Of a DNA stretch of 64,000 bases, positions 2,686-56,040 are shown in pieces. Positions within the stretch are counted from its first letter, which is position 1; each line of letters starts with the position of its first letter. The notes beneath the pieces were generated by a model. That model worked only from the letters and a program-made list of their open reading frames with translations, was not told the DNA's origin and searched no databases. The stretch lies in assembly GCF_055900595.2 (NCBI RefSeq), contig NZ_CM148325.1; one strand, given 5' to 3'. The position numbers and the translations under genes are program-made.

Positions 2686-3609
2686 ATGAATAATTTACCG
2701 CTGCTGAACGATTTGCGCGTCTTTATGCTGGTGGCTCGCCGGGCTGGTTTTGCCGCTGTGGCGGAAGAATTGGGCGTTTCACCGGCGTTCGTCAGCAAGC
2801 GCATCGCCTTGCTGGAGCAAACGCTAAACGTGGTGTTGTTACACCGCACCACCCGCCGCGTCACCATTACCGAAGAAGGAGAGCGGATTTATGAATGGGC
2901 GCAGCGGATTTTGCAGGATGTTGGTCAAATGATGGACGAACTTTCTGACGTGCGTCAGGTGCCGCAGGGGATGCTGCGTATTATCAGCAGCTTTGGTTTT
3001 GGACGACAGGTAGTGGCTCCGGCGTTATCAGCGCTGGCGAAAGCGTATCCGCAACTGGAGTTACGTTTTGATGTGGAAGACCGACTGGTCGATTTGGTCA
3101 ATGAAGGCGTCGATCTCGATATTCGCATTGGCGATGATATCGCCCCTAATTTAATCGCCCGCAAACTGGCGACTAATTACCGCATTCTCTGCGCGTCGCC
3201 GGAATTTATTGCGCAACATGGCGCGCCGAAACATTTAACCGATCTTTCTGCATTGCCGTGCCTGGTCATTAAAGAGCGCGATCATCCTTTTGGTGTCTGG
3301 CAATTACGCAATAAAGAAGGCCACCATGCGATTAAAGTTACCGGCCCACTGTCGTCTAATCATGGAGAAATTGTCCATCAGTGGTGTCTCGATGGGCAGG
3401 GGATTGCTCTGCGCTCCTGGTGGGATGTTAGCGAAAACATTGCCAGTGGTCATTTAGTACAAGTGCTACCGGAATATTACCAGCCAGCAAATGTCTGGGC
3501 CGTTTATGTTTCAAGGCTGGCGACGTCAGCGAAAGTGCGGATAACGGTAGAATTTTTACGCCAGTATTTTGCCGAGCACTACCCGAATTTTTCACTGGAC
3601 CACGCCTGA
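2686..3609 (+). CDS. dmlR: LysR-family transcriptional regulator of dmlA
   Basis: ORF track 2665-3609; start moved to MNNLPLLNDLRVF to give 307 aa as recalled for K-12; N-terminal HTH then LysR substrate domain. Confidence 0.88.
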   Translation: MNNLPLLNDLRVFMLVARRAGFAAVAEELGVSPAFVSKRIALLEQTLNVVLLHRTTRRVTITEEGERIYEWAQRILQDVGQMMDELSDVRQVPQGMLRIISSFGFGRQVVAPALSALAKAYPQLELRFDVEDRLVDLVNEGVDLDIRIGDDIAPNLIARKLATNYRILCASPEFIAQHGAPKHLTDLSALPCLVIKERDHPFGVWQLRNKEGHHAIKVTGPLSSNHGEIVHQWCLDGQGIALRSWWDVSENIASGHLVQVLPEYYQPANVWAVYVSRLATSAKVRITVEFLRQYFAEHYPNFSLDHA

Positions 3610-3717
3610 TTAATGATTCAATTATCGGGTTGATATCAGGTTAAACCCTGATTTTCTCCTTTCTAAGCCGCTAGAGATTGGTTAGCATATTCACCTTTAA
3701 TCGCGCATGATCGATAG

Positions 3718-4374
<657 letters not shown>

Positions 4375-4457
4375 TGCTTTCAGCCCGCGTTATCGCGGGC
4401 TTCCTGCCTGTAATCTTTCCTTATTCATCGCTGATACGGTGCTAAAGAGTAACCAAT

Positions 4458-4480
4458 AAATGGTATTTAAAATGCAAATT
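4458..4480. promoter_or_regulatory. Imperfect AT-rich palindrome upstream of yeaR, candidate NsrR-type operator
   Basis: aaatggtatttaaaatgcaaatt lies about 65 bp upstream of the yeaR start; yeaR-yoaG is a known nitrosative-stress operon (recalled); the match is judged by eye. Confidence 0.3.
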
Positions 4481-4546
4481 ATCAGGCGTACCCTGAAACG
4501 GCTGAAATAAACTGTTTTCAGCACATTCATCGAAGGAGGGAAAAGG

Positions 4547-4906
4547 ATGCTGCAAATCCCACAGAATTATATTCATACGCGCTCAACGCCTTTCTGGAAT
4601 AAACAAACTGCGCCTGCCGGAATATTCGAACGTCATCTTGATAAAGGAACGCGCCCGGGGGTTTACCCACGCCTTTCCGTTATGCATGGGGCGGTCAAAT
4701 ATCTCGGCTACGCTGATGAACACAGTACAGAGCCTGATCAAGTGATCCTTATCGAAGCGGGGCAGTTTGCGGTGTTCCCTCCAGAAAAGTGGCACAACAT
4801 TGAAGCCATGACTGACGACACTTATTTCAACATTGACTTCTTCGTTGCTCCTGAAGTCCTGATGGAAGGCGCGCAACAACGAAAAGTCATTCATAACGGG
4901 AAATGA
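4547..4906 (+). CDS. yeaR: DUF1971-family protein YeaR
   Basis: 119-aa ORF, GGAGG RBS, forms operon with yoaG; length and synteny match recalled K-12. Confidence 0.85.
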   Translation: MLQIPQNYIHTRSTPFWNKQTAPAGIFERHLDKGTRPGVYPRLSVMHGAVKYLGYADEHSTEPDQVILIEAGQFAVFPPEKWHNIEAMTDDTYFNIDFFVAPEVLMEGAQQRKVIHNGK

Positions 4907-4909
4907 ATC

Positions 4910-5092
4910 ATGGGCAAAGCAACGTATACCGTGACCGTCACCAATAACAGTAATGGCGTTTCTGTCGATTATGAAACAGAGACGCCGATGACTTTGCTGG
5001 TGCCAGAAGTGGCGGCTGAAGTGATAAAAGATCTGGTGAATACCGTGCGTTCTTATGACACGGAAAACGAACATGATGTTTGTGGTTGGTAA
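4910..5092 (+). CDS. yoaG: Small protein YoaG
   Basis: 60-aa ORF MGKATYTVTVTNNSNGVSVDYETETPM starting 4 nt after yeaR stop. Confidence 0.8.
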   Translation: MGKATYTVTVTNNSNGVSVDYETETPMTLLVPEVAAEVIKDLVNTVRSYDTENEHDVCGW

Positions 5093-5239
5093 TTATCACT
5101 GATCGTAGATGGCGCAATTTCTGCGCCATCGCAAAAAAATCCTCCGTGATGCTTGTCACAAATCTTGCCCTCCTGATGTTGTGCTATGCTTTTTATCAGC
5201 GACTAACCCGCTAATGCAAAACAGATAAGTGAGGAAACA

Positions 5240-47244: not shown

Positions 47245-48129
47245 TCAGAACAGGTGATCCCACAGTGTGACCAGCAGGTGGATAATGCGGTCCCGGGTTT
47301 TGCGCAGAAGCTGTAACATCCAGGCCGGAAAACTGAAACGGGCAACGGCGTCGTCAAAACTTTTCCCGATGGTTTCACCAAAAGTCTGTTGTGCGTGTTT
47401 CTGGACCCGTTCAGAGCGGTTTTCCCCCCGGATATGTGAATAAACCGCGCTGGTTGCCTGTGGCGGCAGGGCGTGGATCATCAGTGACACCAGTGCCGGA
47501 ATATTCCAGCCGACAGGCGCGGCAACGGGGAGTACCGGAAATGATGAAGGGAACAGGGTTGCCACCCGGGCTGTCACCGTCGCCAGCGAGAGTTCCTGGT
47601 GACGGGACGGGCATTTTTCTGTGTCGTTCCATTCTTCAGCAGGAAATACGCGATCGGCATGGCTGAGAACAAACAGAAAACGCGAGGGATCTGCACCTTC
47701 ATTCAGTAAAAACTGATGCATGGCGATGTCGGCAGCATACGCACGTTCATCAGCCCGCAGGATCCAGATAATCAGATCCAGTTCGGGCAGTAACTGACTG
47801 TAAAGTGCCCGGTATTCCTGATCATGCTGTGGTGTTTCGCCAGTGCCGGGCAGATCGACCAGCGTCATTCTTCGTTCACCGGGCTGAAAGGTAAGACGAT
47901 GAGCCTGACGGGTGCAGCCGTTCAGCGGATGCGTGGCGCAGACACGGGACTGAAAAATGGCATTGCACAGGCTGCTTTTTCCGGCACCGGATTTACCCAT
48001 AATGCCAATCACGGGCTCGTAATGAATAACACTGTGGAGATGTTCAAGGATTTTCTGGCGAATTTCTTCAGGAAGAAACGTCAGATATGATTTCACTTGT
48101 GCGGAGAGGGAAGAATGGCTGAATGACAT
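47245..48129 (-). CDS. Island-associated GTPase (YeeP/YfjP/YkfA family)
   Basis: 294-aa ORF with P-loop GIMGKSGAGKSSL and DLPG switch motif. Confidence 0.8.
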   Translation of the reverse strand: MSFSHSSLSAQVKSYLTFLPEEIRQKILEHLHSVIHYEPVIGIMGKSGAGKSSLCNAIFQSRVCATHPLNGCTRQAHRLTFQPGERRMTLVDLPGTGETPQHDQEYRALYSQLLPELDLIIWILRADERAYAADIAMHQFLLNEGADPSRFLFVLSHADRVFPAEEWNDTEKCPSRHQELSLATVTARVATLFPSSFPVLPVAAPVGWNIPALVSLMIHALPPQATSAVYSHIRGENRSERVQKHAQQTFGETIGKSFDDAVARFSFPAWMLQLLRKTRDRIIHLLVTLWDHLF

Positions 48130-48234
48130 ACCGGTATCCTGTTGATTTCACTGAACCGGATCACACTAATCCGGTTTATCATTCAGGTAATATGGGCGTG
48201 AAAAAATCTGGAGTGACAAAGTTCGGGAGGAGTG

Positions 48235-49185
48235 ATGGCATCACTGTCGATTAATACGCTACGCCGAATGAGCATTTGTAAAAGTCAGGCCTGGAAAGAT
48301 ACCCAGCGAATACTGAAGCGTAGTGGACTTGTGTACAGAGGGGAACGGTCAGAATCGTTTGATCCTGAGAAACATTTTAATCGTTATACGGTGCGTTATC
48401 TGTACCTGCTTAACATAATTGCGCTTAAGATAAGGTCGGTTAGTAAATTTTCCTGTTGGATCGAGGTGGGACAATGCCATCGTATGACTGGTAAACATTT
48501 ATCTCTTAATGCCCCGCCTTTTATGCTGATTCCGCGTAGTATCCGGAGAAAAGTGGATGGATTCAGACAGTCAAAAGGTGAAGCAACCCCAAAATCGGCT
48601 CAACCGTTCACGGGCAGTTTGTATGAGGTTTTGAGAAAGGAGAGCGATTCAGCTAAGCTGGACGCATGGATTGCTGAACTGCCTCTGAACTTGCAGGAGG
48701 AGGGAAAGGAAATCTCAGTCATGGGATTTAGTCCACGGGCTGTGGCCCGACCTGTTCTTCGGTCAGCATCCCCGACGTTTGAACTGTTTTATCAGGAGTA
48801 TCAATCCCTAAGATTAAAATCTGTTTTTAAATTTGAACCAAGATTTGAACAACTTTTAACAAGACTGAGCTTTAGAAAACAATCAATTCTCAGAAAACAA
48901 CAATACAGGGTTAAATCGCAATTACTGGAGAGACTGGGGAATGTGTTGTTTTTCACGTCGCTTTATAACCAGGGATGTTTAGAGGAGTTTATAAATGCAC
49001 TTGTGGAAAAGGAGGACATTTATCTGAAAATGTCCCCTGGGGAGGAAAAGGTGAAAGCACACCAGAAAATGGTTAACTACATTGAAGCGTTCTGCAACAA
49101 AATGACGGAAAAATACCTGATGCCCGCAGCAAGCAGACACTACAAAAAGAAGAAAATCGCCAGGAGCGAAAGTGGTGAAAGTTAA
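48235..49185 (+). CDS. Hypothetical basic protein (gene A of convergent AT-rich pair)
   Basis: 316 aa from ATG at 48235 (GGAGG upstream); low-GC codon usage unlike the flanking backbone; no family recognised. Confidence 0.5.
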   Translation: MASLSINTLRRMSICKSQAWKDTQRILKRSGLVYRGERSESFDPEKHFNRYTVRYLYLLNIIALKIRSVSKFSCWIEVGQCHRMTGKHLSLNAPPFMLIPRSIRRKVDGFRQSKGEATPKSAQPFTGSLYEVLRKESDSAKLDAWIAELPLNLQEEGKEISVMGFSPRAVARPVLRSASPTFELFYQEYQSLRLKSVFKFEPRFEQLLTRLSFRKQSILRKQQYRVKSQLLERLGNVLFFTSLYNQGCLEEFINALVEKEDIYLKMSPGEEKVKAHQKMVNYIEAFCNKMTEKYLMPAASRHYKKKKIARSESGES

Positions 49186-49970
49186 TCCAGTCTATCGTAC
49201 AGAATCAGTTGTTCCAGAATAGCCTGCTGTGTTGTTTTCCGCTCTCTGGTCAGTCTGTCCAGAGCGCTTTTTGCGGATGGCGATATCTTTACGTTGATTT
49301 GTACCCGTTTATCTTTTTTTCCATCGATAAACTGTTTTCTGAATGCATTGTGCATCTTGTCGAAAAATCTTTCTTTTGCAGCGAATCCTAGGTGAAATTC
49401 TTTTGGCGTCAGTAAACAGGGTGTGTCTGTGGGGAATAACATTTTTAGTAAAACTACAATGGCAATATATCTTTCGTTATCATTTACAGGATTAAACCAG
49501 GAAAGATATGTGGGTGAGATACGTGCATCAATATATTCCCATGCCCATTTCAGTTGTTCGGTATTCTTTTTAAGCCATTTGGCTTCGTTTCTCTTTTCGA
49601 GTCCCAGCCAGTTTTGATGCATTATTGAGATAATCCGATCTGCTTCCCCATAAAGGATTAACGCATTAATCCATTTCCCTATAACATTCAGTCGTGTTTC
49701 ATGACTTGAAGGAATAATTGTCATGGGGTTATCCTTCATAACGATCACCCCCTTCAAGGCAGAGTTGAACTCAGATTCATTATTAAGTTTAAGTTTTTCG
49801 GGAACTGTATGAGACATAATTAACCAGAACCAGAATGCTGCAATTTCATTTTTTCTGATCCATTCAGGTATGTGATTATCTGCCAGATTATTATCATTCA
49901 ATAAATGCTCGGTTGTTTTATTTTTCCAGTCATATCTATTCACGTTATAACCGCCTTTATATTGTTTCAT
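49182..49970 (-). CDS. Hypothetical protein with C-terminal ribbon-helix-helix-like motif (gene B)
   Basis: 262 aa from ATG at 49970 (GAGG upstream; ORF track extends to a GTG at 50057); C-terminus KRVQINVKISPSAKSALDRLTRERKTTQQAILEQLI has strand-helix-helix pattern; stop overlaps gene A stop in a TTAA. Confidence 0.5.
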   Translation of the reverse strand: MKQYKGGYNVNRYDWKNKTTEHLLNDNNLADNHIPEWIRKNEIAAFWFWLIMSHTVPEKLKLNNESEFNSALKGVIVMKDNPMTIIPSSHETRLNVIGKWINALILYGEADRIISIMHQNWLGLEKRNEAKWLKKNTEQLKWAWEYIDARISPTYLSWFNPVNDNERYIAIVVLLKMLFPTDTPCLLTPKEFHLGFAAKERFFDKMHNAFRKQFIDGKKDKRVQINVKISPSAKSALDRLTRERKTTQQAILEQLILYDRLD

Positions 49971-50087
49971 CTGATTACGCCTCAATCGTTTTCTTTTCTG
50001 GTGATTTTCACCATCACATGTCAGTTGTATATGCAAGGGGATCAATAAAAATATCACCCTGCAAGCACTTCAAAGCTGATTATGGGG

Positions 50088-50151
50088 ATATTCTAGAACT
50101 ATTCACAAAACTATTCCAGACATATCAAGAACTATTTCTTGACCTATTCAT
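50088..50151. repeat. Four iteron-like direct repeats A(A/C)CTATT(C/T) upstream of gene B
   Basis: tagaactattcac, aaaactattcca, agaactatttctt, gacctattcat within 64 bp. Confidence 0.45.
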
Positions 50152-50323
50152 AATAAAATAAAACATGCTATCAACTACGGCTCATATTCTCCTTGGGGGT
50201 GTCGTTGTACTGTTCGACTGTTCTTGTGGTCAGATTAACAATCTGAAGAGTAAAAGCGACAGTAATCTGTCTGTTATAGTGGCGATAAAAACACTGAATG
50301 CGCATCCTGTATGTGAAATCCTG

Positions 50324-50590
50324 TCATGTAGAGCAGTAAGCAATGACAGACATGCATGTTATATGTGAAGGGGGCCGGGAGACGACATAATCAGTATGGC
50401 TGTCATTCTGGTTGTAAAACGCGATCACTTTCCGGGGGTAAAAGATGATATGGAGGTTGACAAACGGTTTGCTTCGGATTGTCTTTTCTGGGGCCTGAAA
50501 TACGAGGGCAGAAAAATAATTCCAGAGTAAATCTGCTCTGTTTTTAGGACAGAAAACTCCATGCTGGCTGTAAAAGTGAAAAATTAACAC
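50324..50590 (-). pseudogene. 3' portion of an unidentified ORF interrupted by IS10
   Basis: 88-aa frame begins inside the IS10 target duplication; the same frame is open across the duplication into the sequence on the far side of IS10 (51935 onward). Confidence 0.35.
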
Positions 50591-50596
50591 CCAGTA

Positions 50597-51925
50597 CTGA
50601 TGAATCCCCTAATGATTTTTATCAAAATCATTAAGTTAAGGTAGATACACATCTTGTCATATGATCAAATGGTTTCGCCAAAAATCAATAATCAGACAAC
50701 AAAATGTGCGAACTCGATATTTTACACGACTCTCTTTACCAATTCTGCCCCGAATTACACTTAAAACGACTCAACAGCTTAACGTTGGCTTGCCACGCCT
50801 TACTTGACTGTAAAACTCTCACTCTTACCGAACTTGGCCGTAACCTGCCAACCAAAGCGAGAACAAAACATAACATCAAACGAATCGACCGATTGTTAGG
50901 TAATCGTCACCTCCACAAAGAGCGACTCGCTGTATACCGTTGGCATGCTAGCTTTATCTGTTCGGGCAATACGATGCCCATTGTACTTGTTGACTGGTCT
51001 GATATCCGTGAGCAAAAACGGCTTATGGTATTGCGAGCTTCAGTCGCACTACACGGTCGTTCTGTTACTCTTTATGAGAAAGCGTTCCCGCTTTCAGAGC
51101 AATGTTCAAAGAAAGCTCATGACCAATTTCTAGCCGACCTTGCGAGCATTCTACCGAGTAACACCACACCGCTCATTGTCAGTGATGCTGGCTTTAAAGT
51201 GCCATGGTATAAATCCGTTGAGAAGCTGGGTTGGTACTGGTTAAGTCGAGTAAGAGGAAAAGTACAATATGCAGACCTAGGAGCGGAAAACTGGAAACCT
51301 ATCAGCAACTTACATGATATGTCATCTAGTCACTCAAAGACTTTAGGCTATAAGAGGCTGACTAAAAGCAATCCAATCTCATGCCAAATTCTATTGTATA
51401 AATCTCGCTCTAAAGGCCGAAAAAATCAGCGCTCGACACGGACTCATTGTCACCACCCGTCACCTAAAATCTACTCAGCGTCGGCAAAGGAGCCATGGAT
51501 TCTAGCAACTAACTTACCTGTTGAAATTCGAACACCCAAACAACTTGTTAATATCTATTCGAAGCGAATGCAGATTGAAGAAACCTTCCGAGACTTGAAA
51601 AGTCCTGCCTACGGACTAGGCCTACGCCATAGCCGAACGAGCAGCTCAGAGCGTTTTGATATCATGCTGCTAATCGCCCTGATGCTTCAACTAACATGTT
51701 GGCTTGCGGGCGTTCATGCTCAGAAACAAGGTTGGGACAAGCACTTCCAGGCTAACACAGTCAGAAATCGAAACGTACTCTCAACAGTTCGCTTAGGCAT
51801 GGAAGTTTTGCGGCATTCTGGCTACACAATAACAAGGGAAGACTCACTCGTGGCTGCAACCCTGCTTACTCAAAATCTATTCACACATGGTTACGTTTTG
51901 GGGAAATTATGAGGGGATCTCTCAG
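50597..51925 (+). mobile_element. IS10 (IS4 family), complete 1329-bp copy
   Basis: Outside end CTGATGAATCCCCTAATGATTTT at 50597, inside end ...GGGGATCTCTCAG at 51925; perfect 9-bp target-site duplication CACCCAGTA at 50588-50596 and 51926-51934. Confidence 0.93.
50704..51912 (+). CDS. IS10 transposase
   Basis: 402-aa ORF MCELDILHDSLYQFCPELHLKRLNSLTLACHALLDCKTLTLTELGRNLPTKARTKHNIKRIDRLLGNRHL... matching recalled IS10/Tn10 transposase almost exactly. Confidence 0.95.
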   Translation: MCELDILHDSLYQFCPELHLKRLNSLTLACHALLDCKTLTLTELGRNLPTKARTKHNIKRIDRLLGNRHLHKERLAVYRWHASFICSGNTMPIVLVDWSDIREQKRLMVLRASVALHGRSVTLYEKAFPLSEQCSKKAHDQFLADLASILPSNTTPLIVSDAGFKVPWYKSVEKLGWYWLSRVRGKVQYADLGAENWKPISNLHDMSSSHSKTLGYKRLTKSNPISCQILLYKSRSKGRKNQRSTRTHCHHPSPKIYSASAKEPWILATNLPVEIRTPKQLVNIYSKRMQIEETFRDLKSPAYGLGLRHSRTSSSERFDIMLLIALMLQLTCWLAGVHAQKQGWDKHFQANTVRNRNVLSTVRLGMEVLRHSGYTITREDSLVAATLLTQNLFTHGYVLGKL

Positions 51926-53005
51926 CACCCAGTATGTATGGAAGTCTGAAGATGTTGAGAATGTCGGTATGATACTATATACACATATTTTACTAAGTAT
52001 TTTTACTAAGCATTTCAGTAAGTGTTATACACGTATTTTCTACTAAGTGTTTTACCAGACATACACGTGTTTTCATAAACAGCCCTATAAGTGTTTTCAT
52101 TAAGCATTGCTGTACACATTGCTTTGTCTGAAACACATCCAGTTTAGTAAATCTTTACGTTAGCTAAAATCAGTTTAAAGCTGCTGTAAAACCTTTCTGT
52201 TTAAGCAATCAATCTGCTATTCGATTTTACTGATGTTGCGTTTAACCTTTTCTGAGATTTCGAGTTTCGACGTTAGCATGAGAAAAGTATCTTTACGCTA
52301 AATCAACCCGAACTTTCCTGAAGTAATCTGACGTTTTTTTCGATGTGCTTACGACGATTCTGTTAAACGACTTTCTGGATGTTTTGATAACAATCAGATT
52401 GAGGCATTAACGATTCCTGACGTTTTCTTTTCCGTGTAAGGTCATTCTTTTTGTCATGAGGTTTCTTCTTGCATTGCGAAAGTGTGATGAACGGTTTTGG
52501 TGTTTTTGATTCAGATAAGGTTTACGTTATCGATGGTTAACCGTTTTTATGGTGCGTAGTGAAACGTAACTTTTTCAGGATGAGAAAATCGATTCTGATG
52601 TTGGTGATTTTTGTTCTTGTGGCGGGGTTTATCTGTAAACAGGTTTTAAACGTGTCATTCACATCCGTGATTGAGTTGTGTGATTAAGCTGTAGGTTTTG
52701 GGGTTGTTGTTGATTTGCATTACCAGGAAGCGTTCTGGTTGCGTTTCTGGTGTTTTGTTCGAATGTTCTGTGGATCCTTTTCCCTTCTGACTTTTCTCGT
52801 TGTCCATGTCGTTTTTAAATCCATTCGCTGTTCTTGAGTGTTTTTACCCTGCGTGTAGAATTATCTTTTCGTTCCGGGATGGTTTGTTCCGTTTCAATCA
52901 CTCTTAATCAGAGAGTTGTAGCATTGCTCAATGCCGGATGCCGTAAAGTTTTACCGCGGTGATTAATGATGTGAAGTCAATCCAAATCAACGGAGATCTC
53001 TCATC

Positions 53006-53737
53006 ATGAATCAACCAATACACAATGCTTACTGGTTATCCCGTTTTGAAAGTATTCTCAACAGTGCCCTGGCGCAGCACCGTGCCGTCTCGTTAATCCG
53101 GGTGGATTTACGTTTCCCTGAGTATATGCCTGCCACCATCATGGATACCGATTTAGATTCAGCGGTGATTTCTCGTTTTTTTGCATCCCTGAAAGCAAAA
53201 ATTCAGGCTTACCAGCGACATAAACGACGTGCCAACAAGCGTGTGCGTGCAACCACTCTGCGTTATTTCTGGTGTCGGGAGTTTGGCAAGGAAAAAGGCA
53301 GGAAACATTATCACGTGATATTACTGCTCAACAAAGATACCTGGTGCTCGCCAGGGGATTTCACCGTTCCTTCTTCGCTGGCGACACTGATCAAGCTGGC
53401 ATGGTGTAGTGCTCTGCATCTTGAGCCCTGGCAGGGTAATGGACTGGTTCATTTTTCCAGGCGGACGCCTTTCCGTAAACCGACATCATCTGATGCTCGC
53501 CCTTCTTCCGATGATACGCCTTTGTCGGGTGGATGTTCTGATACCAGGAAGGCTTCAGACAAAAAGCCGGGTGAAGCCGCTGTTCTCTGGATCAAGCGTG
53601 GTGATGTGGAAGCGCTGCAGAAAGCCCGGAACAGAGCCAGTTATCTCGTGAAATATGAGACGAAGCAGCATGACGGTTCCGGGCAACGTAATTATGGTTG
53701 CAGTCGTGGGCCGGGGCGTCTGCTGGATGGCAGGTGA
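53006..53737 (+). CDS. YagK/YfjJ-family protein (island-associated, inovirus Gp2-like)
   Basis: 243-aa ORF with ...LIRVDLRFPEY...KHYHVILLLNKD... motifs; preceded by conserved leader motif. Confidence 0.6.
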   Translation: MNQPIHNAYWLSRFESILNSALAQHRAVSLIRVDLRFPEYMPATIMDTDLDSAVISRFFASLKAKIQAYQRHKRRANKRVRATTLRYFWCREFGKEKGRKHYHVILLLNKDTWCSPGDFTVPSSLATLIKLAWCSALHLEPWQGNGLVHFSRRTPFRKPTSSDARPSSDDTPLSGGCSDTRKASDKKPGEAAVLWIKRGDVEALQKARNRASYLVKYETKQHDGSGQRNYGCSRGPGRLLDGR

Positions 53738-54063
53738 GCCCTGTAAAACGACATCCGGTGTCTGAGCTTATGCTACAGGACGTTGGCTGACGCCCTTAGC
53801 TCGTTTTCTGAAAAAGTCGTCCTGAAGTCATGCAACGGTATTTTTCTCTGCTTTCGCTCCTGGAAACACTCCGTCGGTAAAACCTTACTGTCCTGCTTAA
53901 TGATGTGAACCGAAGTCAACGGAGATCATTCATTCTGAACCTGCATCCGGTGTTCTGTCCCTTGTCGGTTACCTGATCTTCCCGTTCTGCCGCGGTTTTT
54001 CACTTATTCCATCAACCCCATACGCAAGCCATAACACGTCAGCGCATCCACGGGCAGGACGCG

Positions 54064-54666
54064 TTGTGGGCTGCGTATAACGGAACATATCTTATGAATG
54101 CTATCCCTTATTTCGACTATAGCATGGCGCCCTTCTGGCCATCTTATCAGAACAAAATCATCGGCGTTCTCAACCGTGTGTTGCGCGAGCAGTCCGGCTC
54201 CAGGATACGGCGGATCCTGCTTCGTCTGCCGGGGGAACATGGCAACATCTTCAGCGACAGAAAAACCTGGTTCGGTATGGCCTTTATCGAAACCGTCAGT
54301 GCGCTGATGAATGCAACCCCCGGACGCGACCTCTGCTGGCTCCTGACACGTCATCCTGAAAAACCGGAATACCACGTGGTGCTGTGCGTCAGACAGGAAT
54401 ATTTCGACGGCCCTGAGCTGGACCGGTTGATTCTGGATGCCTGGAGCAACGTACTGGGCTTCGCGTCACCGGGTGAAGCAGCACCGTACCAGAAACAGAT
54501 AACCCGGGATGTGGTGCTGGACAGTTGTTCACCGGACTGCGAAGAGAGACTCAAAGAGCTGATATGGGCGTTCAGTGATTTCGCCCGCGATCGTCGTGGT
54601 GTGCGCGATCCGGAAGCCCGTTACCTCGCCGGTAATCCCTGGTATCCCGTAGCAGGCCAGCTCTGA
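54064..54666 (+). CDS. YagK/YfjJ-family paralog
   Basis: 200-aa ORF with corresponding motifs RILLRLPGEH and PEYHVVLCVRQE; same leader motif upstream; true start may be an internal Met. Confidence 0.55.
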   Translation: MWAAYNGTYLMNAIPYFDYSMAPFWPSYQNKIIGVLNRVLREQSGSRIRRILLRLPGEHGNIFSDRKTWFGMAFIETVSALMNATPGRDLCWLLTRHPEKPEYHVVLCVRQEYFDGPELDRLILDAWSNVLGFASPGEAAPYQKQITRDVVLDSCSPDCEERLKELIWAFSDFARDRRGVRDPEARYLAGNPWYPVAGQL

Positions 54667-54734
54667 AAGCTCAGCTCAGCAGATTCACCCGCATTTGCCC
54701 AACATTCATAAATCTCACAGAGGACATTCTGACC

Positions 54735-54971
54735 ATGTTGACCTCAATGACAGGTCACGACAGCGTATTGCTGCGTGCCGACGATCCCCTGATCGACATG
54801 AACTACATCACCAGCTTCACTGGTATGACCGACAAATGGTTTTACAAGCTGATCAGTGAAGGCCATTTCCCTAAACCCATCAAACTGGGGCGCAGCAGCC
54901 GCTGGTACAAAAGTGAAGTGGAGCAGTGGATGCAGCAACGAATCGAGGCATCACGAGGGGCAGCAGCATGA
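54735..54971 (+). CDS. AlpA-family phage/island transcriptional regulator (excisionase-like HTH)
   Basis: 78-aa ORF with ...YITSFTGMTDKWFYKLISEGHFPKPIKLGRSSRWYKSEVEQWM. Confidence 0.78.
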   Translation: MLTSMTGHDSVLLRADDPLIDMNYITSFTGMTDKWFYKLISEGHFPKPIKLGRSSRWYKSEVEQWMQQRIEASRGAAA

Positions 54972-55720
54972 AACGTGTTGTAATGCCGGTACGCTGGCAA
55001 TGTGCAAAATACCAGCGTTGGTATTGTGGAAATCAGCCCTGTCCCTGGTGCTGGCGACCTGCTGCCCCCGTCTGTCATTCCTCGTTCTTCGCTGTAACAG
55101 GCATCGTACCGGTCTCGGCGTGCTTTCCTGCGTACCGACACCGGTTCAGCAACATTCAAGGGGATCAAATCGTGCAAATAACCGAAACCGTACTTTCAGA
55201 GCCGGTGGAAATCCGGCGTTTTATTCAGCAGGCGGTGGATCACTGGCCGCGTCTGCTGGCCGTCCACTTCACACTCCATTCGGCAGAAGGAAACATCAAC
55301 GGACAACAGATTCATGCATTCTGTACTTCCTTTTACCGACAGGTGCACGAGCGTATTACTGAACGTAATCACACGGCCAGTCCAGCACCACCGGTGGTAT
55401 TACGCTGGTTGCGGGAACAACATGGAGGAGCAACAATGCGATGCCTGTTGCTGCTCAGCCAGACGAGCATTTGCCATCCACGGGTCAGTGCCACGGTTGA
55501 TGAAGAATGTTCGCAACGGGTGGATTTATTGCAACAGACATGGCGGGTGATAAGTGCTGACGGACAATGCCGGGTGGAAAGGTGTTTTCAGGCTGCCCGG
55601 GGTGATACATCCGGCCAGTATATTGCGTTAAAAACAGTTGCATTGTCTCTGGGGTTACCGGTTGTGACCGGTATTACCCATCGCCCGGTACAGCGCTGTA
55701 CATTGATTACAGCTCAGTGA
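54968..55720 (+). CDS. Hypothetical protein with cysteine-rich N-terminus
   Basis: ATG at 54968 overlaps alpA stop (ATGA); N-terminus has CAKYQRWYCGNQPCPWCWRPAAPVCH; alternative GTG start near 55174; no family recognised. Confidence 0.4.
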   Translation: MKRVVMPVRWQCAKYQRWYCGNQPCPWCWRPAAPVCHSSFFAVTGIVPVSACFPAYRHRFSNIQGDQIVQITETVLSEPVEIRRFIQQAVDHWPRLLAVHFTLHSAEGNINGQQIHAFCTSFYRQVHERITERNHTASPAPPVVLRWLREQHGGATMRCLLLLSQTSICHPRVSATVDEECSQRVDLLQQTWRVISADGQCRVERCFQAARGDTSGQYIALKTVALSLGLPVVTGITHRPVQRCTLITAQ

Positions 55721-55737: not shown

Positions 55738-56040
55738 TCAACGAGGTTTTCTGTCTTTTCGTCGGTCATTCAGCATCATTAAACGGGTCTCTGCCTCTTT
55801 CTGTTCCTGTGGTGTCACTTCCCCGCACGGCTGACCGTTCAGGTTGTAACGGGCGCCACCTGCTATTAACGCACGGTAATAGCGCGGAGACTGCACATAA
55901 GACGCCACTGCTGCATGTAATGTACCAGCGCCAAACGCCAGTTCTCGGATGGCGATATCCTGTATCAGGTCGTCAGGTATCCCCACTTTAAGTGGTTTTG
56001 TTTTTTTCCCGGTTGAATGACTCAGGCCAGAGTTCCACAA
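55738..56040 (-). CDS. Hypothetical 100-aa protein
   Basis: ORF only; basic C-terminus; no family recognised. Confidence 0.3.
   Translation of the reverse strand: MWNSGLSHSTGKKTKPLKVGIPDDLIQDIAIRELAFGAGTLHAAVASYVQSPRYYRALIAGGARYNLNGQPCGEVTPQEQKEAETRLMMLNDRRKDRKPR

Follow-up and report, generated by a model that had tools for sequence, protein, structure and literature searches.

YagK/YfjJ genes belong to the core of CP4-57-like, pathogenicity and defence islands and are also core to satellite-like islands of Pseudomonas (10.1101/2024.08.29.610337). Upstream of one of them, yagK of Escherichia coli K-12, the yagK-yagL spacer holds a constitutive RpoD promoter, TTTAGA-16-TATAAT, detected with the RpoD holoenzyme by systematic evolution of ligands by exponential enrichment (SELEX) and flagged as an H-NS site (Shimada et al. 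2014, Table 2, PMC3946193). The stretch analysed here, positions 51935-53005 of a 64,000-nucleotide (nt) piece of contig NZ_CM148325.1 (assembly GCF_055900595.2; the whole piece is hereafter the window), lies directly before another gene of this family and is read, with moderate confidence, as the larger part of the non-coding control region of an island YagK/YfjJ-AlpA module, cut in two by the insertion sequence IS10. Its general kind is known: it is non-coding, AT-rich island DNA that probably consists of an H-NS-bound promoter and a leader. The stretch itself is mostly low-constraint spacer, neither a new RNA nor a hidden gene, and overall nothing out of the ordinary for a regulatory or spacer region, apart from one lead of interest, an unannotated, family-wide cis cassette next to a protein with a predicted HUH fold.

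The basic description given by an earlier note on this DNA holds. No open reading frame (ORF) of at least 60 amino acids (aa) is present in 51935-53005, where the longest listed ORF has 50 aa and the longest stop-to-stop frame 62 codons; a six-frame recount gives 51913-53005 (1093 nt) as the longest ORF-free stretch in the window, the second longest being 539 nt; and the base composition of the plus strand is shifted towards T (A.234, C.165, G.208, T.392 versus about.25 each window-wide). The GC content of the region is 34-42%, and within 52350-52950 the GC skew rises to +0.33 and the AT skew falls to -0.45. The conserved unit is wider than the stretch. In alignments of 8 and then 40 distinct copies, conservation starts at about 50510 regardless of the left-hand sequence, and therefore the real feature is a unit of about 1.16 kb, 50510-50596 plus 51935-53005, with IS10 inside it (Table 1). 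The ORF-free stretch is thus the larger part of a non-coding unit that IS10 split, leaving the 9-bp target duplication cacccagta at 50588-50596 and 51926-51934. In strain LH10-b-1 (locus L001), the same island lacks IS10 and is contiguous and 100% identical across the insertion point, and a 272-nt query spanning that point retrieves the empty-site cassette from 1861 of the 5426 complete E. coli genomes, in none of which it is annotated. Strains IAI39 and UPEC132 are examples with an uninterrupted unit.

The earlier note had also offered that IS10 might have interrupted a gene of which the region is the decayed 5' part, an idea that reconstruction of the empty site does not support. Without IS10, the minus-strand frame across the duplication measures 120 codons from stop to stop (52024 to 50327), has its first methionine at codon 111, enters the region by 90 nt only, and runs over sequence that among copies is wholly different or changed by insertions and deletions (indels) of lengths not divisible by three; the neighbouring 291-aa gene (49182-50057, minus strand) is intact. 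The proposed alignment to homologous islands likewise uncovered no ORF conserved among copies. Specifically, the spacer shows 53 distinct indels across the 40 copies, 41 of which would shift a reading frame by their length, three-base periodicity is absent (variability by phase 0.113, 0.105 and 0.106), and a 57-aa ORF annotated in some genomes by the Prokaryotic Genome Annotation Pipeline (PGAP) is intact in only about half. Six-frame translations matched no Pfam family at E values up to 1. The stretch is non-coding, the target of IS10 is conserved non-coding DNA rather than a gene, and the consequence for annotation is that this IS10 copy disrupts regulatory DNA and not a gene.

The conserved distal part of the unit consists of motif 1, motif 2 and an array of direct repeats. 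Motif 1 has the family consensus TAAYTNNAGAGT, and its reverse complement corresponds to an extended -10 element (TGGAATTAT) kept in 31 of 40 copies. It occurs once per locus, also in Brenneria, Providencia and other distant relatives (IMG/VR, 29-34% identity) and at K-12 yagK and yfjJ; in Providencia, it stands about 90 nt before a divergent GTPase gene. Motif 2, present in a single copy in the window, follows motif 1 by 50-95 nt in distant relatives and there precedes short direct repeats that use a different word in each lineage; its core, TGTYGG(W)ATAG-GTAATATATA, recurs upstream of family members at 29-44% protein identity. Motif 2 carries the signature of a sigma-70 promoter of the extended -10 class: TGn precedes a -10 hexamer whose second base is A and whose sixth is T, and the site keeps its place among the copies. 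At K-12 yagK, the SELEX promoter reads exactly TTTAGA-TGTTGGATAGGTATTA-TATAAT, and therefore motif 2 fills the spacer between the two hexamers of yagK. By this positional homology, motif 2 of the window would be the promoter of the island module, and H-NS would be expected to bind the unit as well. Of the three readings offered by the earlier note, a silenced promoter region comes closest, on the strength of the extended -10 and of the RpoD/H-NS site at yagK, but it covers only the first 50-170 nt or so.

At the left flank of IS10, it is observed that the RNA-OUT end of the element (window 50597-50711), and hence pOUT, points to the left; transcription running outward from IS10 would cross motif 1 and the terminator-like hairpin that overlaps it toward the 291-aa gene at 49182-50057.

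The repeats that follow motif 2 account for the tttactaag word that had drawn attention to the stretch; of the recurring words named for it, only the tttactaag group exceeds chance. The word TTTACTAAG occurs twice versus 0.00 expected; YANTAAG occurs five times versus 0.26 expected in 1071 nt, with a maximum of two in 500 dinucleotide shuffles, and all five lie inside 51991-52104 (115 nt); TTTAC occurs nine times versus 2.4 expected, a count reached in 0 of 500 shuffles. In contrast, CGTT (13 versus 8.7 expected, 37 of 500 shuffles as high) and GTTTTC (3 versus 1.4, 82 of 500) show no excess and are explained by composition. Tandem Repeats Finder delimits a 13-nt array at 51988-52053 with 5.2 copies and a score of 53, as high as in 4 of 300 shuffles, so that the stretch shows what characterises an iteron array, a cluster of three or more direct copies of a word in the range of about 10-22 nt that chance does not explain. 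The number of repeats differs between copies of the unit, and in other lineages this position is occupied by short direct repeats particular to each. The repeats occupy what would be an operator-like position, about +1 to +120 relative to the putative start. The several short hairpins also mentioned for this region do not exceed chance: they are not a feature, because 200-nt windows of either strand do not fold with unusual stability (minimum free energy z > -1.6 in all of them).

At its other end, the unit closes with a proximal block that is nearly invariant and extends into the first 45 nt of the coding sequence (CDS), the conserved length before the start codon being 75-105 nt. A hairpin is predicted at 52960-53013, in which AAUGAUGUGAAGUC pairs with GGAGAUCUCUCAUCAUGAAUC and both the Shine-Dalgarno (SD) sequence and the AUG are paired; the consensus fold computed by RNAalifold for 52901-53039, around the start codon, reaches -28.9 kcal/mol (z -4.9) and is the sole structure signal found. 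Blocks similar to the proximal block are present at loci L017, L018 and L081. Just upstream, the 5-bp hairpin CTCTT-AATCA-GAGAG at 52901-52915 keeps its pairing through CG/GC/AT, TA/TG/CG and CG/TA changes between allele groups, which represent few independent events. Covariation in the unit is limited to this hairpin and falls short of what defines a new structured RNA family. The same 15 nt could be either an RNA stem in the 5' untranslated region or a dyad binding site in the DNA.

As a separate observation, the proximal block (window 52943-53010) recurs at least 0.9 kb downstream of its first copy, over about 65 nt and with about 76% identity, in several related loci, namely L036 (7532-7594), L046 (3924-3986), L061 (6985-7047), L066 (10073-10135) and L011 (8046-8096). 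The window holds no such second copy; where it occurs, another gene may share the same translation-start region.

Between the repeats and the proximal block lies the T-rich spacer, whose sequence is found only in E. coli records, including three plasmid records and no phage record. Among 31 E. coli loci with an intact 243-aa gene, nucleotide diversity is 0.149 in the spacer (52106-52930) versus 0.088 at the four-fold degenerate sites of the gene; it is 0.193 in the repeats (51986-52105), 0.165 from motif 1 to the promoter (50510-51985), and 0.048 in the proximal block (52931-53005). The non-coding alleles are mosaic. At loci L086, L087 and L013, a spacer segment of about 300 nt (window 52521/2 to 52822-52852) is swapped for about 1.15-1.2 kb (3983-5135, 4080-5232 and 3593-4788, respectively) with a left breakpoint common to all three; the replacement holds an opposite-strand gene for a 176-aa hypothetical protein (WP_000778605.1) in L086 and L087 and only a 58-aa gene call in L013. 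Moreover, an unmatched segment of about 1.8 kb lies between 51981 and 52337 in L052 and L070. Because its diversity exceeds that of four-fold sites and because such replacements and insertions occur, purifying selection acts little or not at all on the spacer sequence. Motif 2 and the start codon are about 60 nt apart at yfjJ, about 830 nt at L081 and about 1030 nt here, and across the family the spacer measures anything from about 60 to about 1000 nt; therefore, it is a lineage-specific expansion.

The same data bear on the idea that the spacer is an eroded old gene, or foreign DNA inserted between cassette and gene in the ancestor of the E. coli subfamily, with no present function. Lineage specificity (relatives have 60-700 nt at this place), evolution faster than at four-fold sites and the tolerance of the replacement and of other large insertions all fit such a remnant, and changes from T to another base outnumber changes to T (69 versus 53), as if the skew were relaxing, although the difference is not significant. 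This origin is nevertheless very unlikely, as no frame matches Pfam, no three-base periodicity remains, no phage record is similar and the plasmid records are only E. coli copies of the same unit, while the length stays at about 0.8 kb in most of the 40 copies, several internal blocks are more than 90% conserved (52130-52260 and 52640-52800, for example), and both the cassette and the start region would be left unexplained.

Some further accounts of the spacer were tried and rejected. It is not a degenerate iteron array, since full iteron words are not enriched there and only TTTAC is (6 versus 1.3); a mutation bias linked to transcription or single-stranded DNA does not lie behind its T-richness, as the per-base rates of C>T (0.208) and G>A (0.202) are equal; and ops/RfaH, DnaA-box and Dam-cluster readings, made by eye, were dropped because the candidate words are not conserved between copies. 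A small length-variable repeat was also noticed at window positions of about 52600-52625, where loci L004 and L007 have a run of the hexanucleotide GGTGAT, GATGGTGATGGTGATGGTGATGG, and the window has TTGGTGATTTTTGTTCTTGTGG.

Taken as the control region of the YagK/YfjJ-AlpA module, the unit would work as follows. Motif 2 would be the sigma-70 promoter of the operon, with transcription starting near 51985, and would probably be bound by H-NS, as was the homologous K-12 yagK site in vitro. The repeats downstream of it may form an operator recognised by an island protein, either the HUH protein or AlpA. The spacer, little constrained in sequence, would come along either as a long untranslated leader or simply as spacer DNA; its sense strand, with G over C and poor in C, would give a transcript that is a poor loading substrate for Rho, and the antisense transcript would be a good one, which fits a long untranslated leader. 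Finally, the last 75-105 nt may fold with SD and AUG paired and keep translation of the nickase-like protein low. IS10 would then place 1.3 kb between motif 1 and motif 2 and leave the promoter core, the repeats, the spacer and the gene intact.

Several observations weigh against this control-region reading. The promoter evidence consists of consensus matching and of an in vitro result on a paralogue with 30% protein identity, and the spacing of the hexamers is poor (TTGAGA-12-TACTAT or, as an alternative pair, TTGAGA-17-TATACA, which lacks the final T), so that the promoter call rests on the extended -10. Motif 1 is conserved before yagK and yfjJ as well, where no divergent gene exists, and a function as leftward promoter is therefore not its whole meaning. 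It is hard to square an exclusively distal promoter with a leader of about 1 kb in which 1.15-kb replacements bearing an opposite-strand gene are tolerated, as in L086 and L087; the candidate proximal promoter at 52834-52861 may be doing the work in this allele, its -10 being degraded in other alleles and the element not being among the conserved sites. The reading does not account for the spacer's marked excess of T over A and of G over C; substitution rates are strand-symmetric today, and the skew could simply be inherited. Lastly, the SD/AUG hairpin lacks covariation support because its pairs never vary, and it is not kept in distant relatives.

The product of the downstream gene introduces the second way in which the cassette could be understood. 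The 243-aa protein matches PF11726, PF23343 (REP_ORF2-G2P) and the replication-initiation families of PHROG, and its residues H101 and H103 (KHYHVxLLLN) and Y213 and K216 (YLxK), which make up the HUH and YxxK motifs, are invariant in all 19 aligned family members. Protein and profile sequence searches of the PDB gave no match and only the fold search was informative, assigning the AlphaFold2 model (predicted local distance difference test, pLDDT, 76; predicted template modelling score, pTM, 0.77) to the HUH-nickase fold. An E. coli-subfamily insertion at residues 153-189 (about 40 aa, rich in Ser, Asp and Pro) is missing from relatives and predicted to be disordered (pLDDT below 50). The CDS is intact in 35 of the 37 loci with data; L014 and L015 encode 214-aa forms frameshifted in the 153-189 segment, with loss of the Tyr motif, and the 214-aa "relatives" at 62-74% identity were discarded as frameshifted copies of the same E. 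coli subfamily that add no evolutionary depth. The MOB_M relaxases of the iOriT preprint were also set aside, being tyrosine-recombinase-like and unrelated to the YagK/YfjJ family.

Since a protein with HUH and Tyr motifs and a predicted HUH-nickase fold is encoded immediately downstream, the cassette is a candidate for its origin too. According to this alternative, the distal cassette (motif 2 and the repeats, perhaps with motif 1) would be a double-strand, transfer or mobilisation origin nicked and bound by the HUH protein, used for rolling-circle replication or mobilisation after excision by AlpA and the integrase, and the spacer would be displaced first as a single strand. It is unlikely, and it is compatible with the promoter reading: in circular Rep-encoding single-stranded (CRESS) DNA viruses and in rolling-circle plasmids, the origin overlaps the rep promoter, and the nick motif on which HUH initiators act has short repeats for their binding at its flanks, usually near their own gene. 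Besides the catalytic residues and the Pfam and PHROG matches, it is favoured by a motif of about 20 nt that stays conserved beside the gene while the protein drifts to 30% identity and that is followed by lineage-specific repeats, the usual layout of an HUH origin; by the yfjJ-lineage form of motif 2, TCTTGATAGGTAATATATAG, which contains CTTGATA, the word at the origin of phiX174 (CAACTTG|ATATTAAT..) and in pC194; and by the T-rich, C-poor plus strand, a bias shared by the packaged strand of single-stranded DNA phages. An adjacent, putatively cognate initiator gene and direct repeats beside a conserved motif are indeed what a rolling-circle origin displays, binding of the initiator to the repeats being putative here. 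Against it, no significant inverted repeat or hairpin surrounds motif 2 (51955-51985), folding is not in excess, and the window contains no nick consensus, its motif being TGTCGGTATGA and not CTTGATA, an AT-rich similarity easily over-read. Likewise, the window has no second, terminator copy of the motif, substitution rates are strand-symmetric and nothing suggests that the plus strand is now single-stranded at times, the cassette and repeats are more diverse within E. coli than four-fold sites, and RNA polymerase binds the yagK equivalent in vitro, which already accounts for the conservation. No replication or mobilisation role is reported for any YagK/YfjJ protein in the literature searched.

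In its most general form, the proposal would be that YagK/YfjJ proteins are unrecognised HUH initiators or relaxases of enterobacterial tRNA-associated islands, with the cassette (50513-50528 plus 51955-52105) as their origin, so that excised islands are replicated by rolling circle or mobilised, the spacer being the first strand displaced; this generalisation is rather unlikely. Still, a predicted HUH fold and invariant catalytic residues beside a conserved motif and iterons raise the question of island replication or movement after excision. A related view of the locus as a plasmid-like "leading region" beside an origin of transfer, by comparison with the leading-region layout of F-type plasmids, was rejected, as the antirestriction, DUF932 and GTPase genes point away from the cassette.

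The third possibility, a non-coding RNA, had been raised by the earlier note together with a covariance-model search as a check. Such an RNA would be a long regulatory transcript, or a small RNA (sRNA) running from the distal promoter through the repeats, perhaps bound by a ProQ/FinO-like protein. The conserved promoter-like element with no ORF behind it, a strand-asymmetric, C-poor spacer that would resist Rho, a ProQ/FinO-family gene in the same island (55738-56040) and the compensatory changes in hairpin 52901-52915 speak for it. The check went the other way: Rfam cmscan of 49000-55000 at E values up to 1 returned only RNA-OUT inside IS10 and a chance match of 19.9 bits in the CDS, and sliding RNAalifold over 50500-52900 of the plus strand, run on 31 copies below 97% identity, gave consensus energies near zero (z > -1.6), with unremarkable single-sequence z values. 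Diversity above that of four-fold sites, the lack of a conserved terminator after the repeats and the frameshifts of the ProQ/FinO gene in L001, L004, L006 and L007 add to the case against, and a non-coding RNA is most improbable.

With regard to distribution, the 1079-nt query matched 1875 of the 5426 complete E. coli genomes, at a median of 2 and a maximum of 8 places per genome and with identities of 60-100%; in 1309 genomes the match covered at least 80% of the query. The unit, which is unannotated, is thus carried by roughly one in three complete E. coli genomes, frequently in several copies, and in E. coli islands it always lies directly upstream of a YagK/YfjJ-family gene. At eight annotated E. 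coli loci (L001-L008), the match adjoins an "inovirus Gp2 family" gene, as named by PGAP, inside an unannotated gap of 1.5-1.9 kb; the left neighbours vary, with GTPase, DUF932, antirestriction and toxin-antitoxin genes farther left and variable unknown genes in between. K-12 lacks the unit at both CP4-6 and CP4-57, and its only tblastn matches to the window protein are yagK and yfjJ, both at 30% identity; yagJ, which also encodes 243 aa, was considered as an orthologue and rejected, as tblastn found no homology. Relatives at 36-44% protein identity occur in Brenneria, Providencia and metagenomic contigs and share the order of DUF932, antirestriction and GTPase genes on one strand, an intergenic region, the YagK-like gene and AlpA. 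A scan of genome contigs with the window protein gave 2 loci only, and a scan of viral contigs for the motif 1 17-mer gave mostly chance matches, the unit being present only in L022. The cis cassette thus stays conserved beside YagK/YfjJ genes across Enterobacterales, and no description of it as a family-wide element was found in the literature searched.

In the window, the unit is preceded by a GTPase gene (47245-48129, minus strand) and two unknown genes; the YagK/YfjJ-family gene is followed by a gene for a 200-aa unknown protein, an AlpA-family gene (54735-54971) and a convergent ProQ/FinO-like fragment. The two genes on the left, 48232-49185 (plus) and 49182-50057 (minus), have no match in Pfam, PHROG, PADLOC or NCBIfam, and the same slot holds other unknown genes in other islands (376, 407 or 339 aa), which resembles a cargo slot beside a control region. 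On the right, the ProQ/FinO-family fragment (55738-56040, minus strand) converges on the YagK-AlpA operon, and its counterparts in the four loci named above are recorded as frameshifted by RefSeq.

Table 1. Features of the IS10-split unit and of the gene downstream, in window coordinates.
Feature	Position	Strand	Basis or remark
Motif 1, AATAATTCCAGAGTAA	50513-50528	+	Left edge of the conserved unit
Hairpin CAGAG-N8-CTCTG followed by T5	50523-50540		Terminator-like on both strands, weak; overlaps motif 1; consensus scan
IS10	50597-51925 (1329 bp)	+	Between motif 1 and motif 2; sequence
RNA-OUT	50642-50711	-	Rfam, 97 bits
IS10 transposase ORF	50704-51912		
Motif 2, promoter-like	51955-51983	+	TTGAGA at 51955-60; conserved core TGTCGGTATGATACTATATAC at 51962-82
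Extended -10, TGATACTAT	51970-51978	+	Kept in 35 of 40 copies
Direct repeats, T[GA]TTTT(C)AYTAAG	51986-52105	+	About seven of 12-14 nt; Tandem Repeats Finder, repeat finder, shuffles; the tttactaag word
T-rich, C-poor spacer	52106-52930	+	About 820 nt; E. coli-specific; long untranslated leader or plain spacer DNA
Candidate proximal sigma-70 promoter, TTGAGT-16-TAGAAT	52834-52861	+	Consensus scan, 9/12; this allele group only
5-bp hairpin or dyad	52901-52915	+	Motif-1-like word TAATCAGAGAGT at 52905-52916
Conserved proximal block and translation-initiation region	52931-53016	+	SD GGAG at 52992-52995; AUG at 53006
YagK/YfjJ-family gene, 243 aa	53006-53737	+	Predicted HUH nickase or replication-initiator-like protein

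Compared with known systems, the unit resembles Rfam families and island sRNAs in being ORF-free, AT-rich island DNA, but it belongs to no family at E values up to 1 and has no conserved structure. The intergenic region of the Ff phages (M13/f1) lies before gene II and comprises about 0.5 kb of strong hairpins that include the packaging signal and both origins. Like it, the unit is non-coding, has a T-rich plus strand and stands directly before a G2P-related gene, a relation given here by the Pfam REP_ORF2-G2P match; unlike it, the unit has no excess single-strand folding and matches no phage record. With the double-strand origins of HUH systems (the pMV158 RepB origin, those of adeno-associated virus and the parvoviruses, and the iterons in the rep promoter of CRESS-DNA viruses), it shares a motif and lineage-specific repeats upstream of a gene for an HUH/Tyr protein, whereas the window cassette lacks a nick-site hairpin and stands about 1 kb from the gene, nicking, replication and mobilisation being putative here; the CTTGATA of the phiX174 and pC194 nick sites appears in the yfjJ-type motif and not in that of the window. 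Occlusion of the translation start is found in mobile elements, as in the fold-back inhibition of the IS10/IS50 transposase, and here too the predicted stem would pair the SD and AUG of a potentially harmful DNA-cleaving protein, although the pairing is predicted, invariant (no covariation) and absent from distant relatives. A further likeness is that to the upstream region of K-12 yagK in CP4-6. The window unit differs from it in its repeat word, in a weaker -35/-10 match and in the added T-rich spacer of about 820 nt, where the yagK region spans about 270 bp with about 190 nt from promoter to ATG. The downstream gene is of the same family (30% identity), and the order of elements is the same: motif 1 (TAATTGCAGAGTAAC), about 60 nt, motif 2 (TGTTGGATAGGTATTATATAAT), short repeats with an inverted repeat, and the gene.

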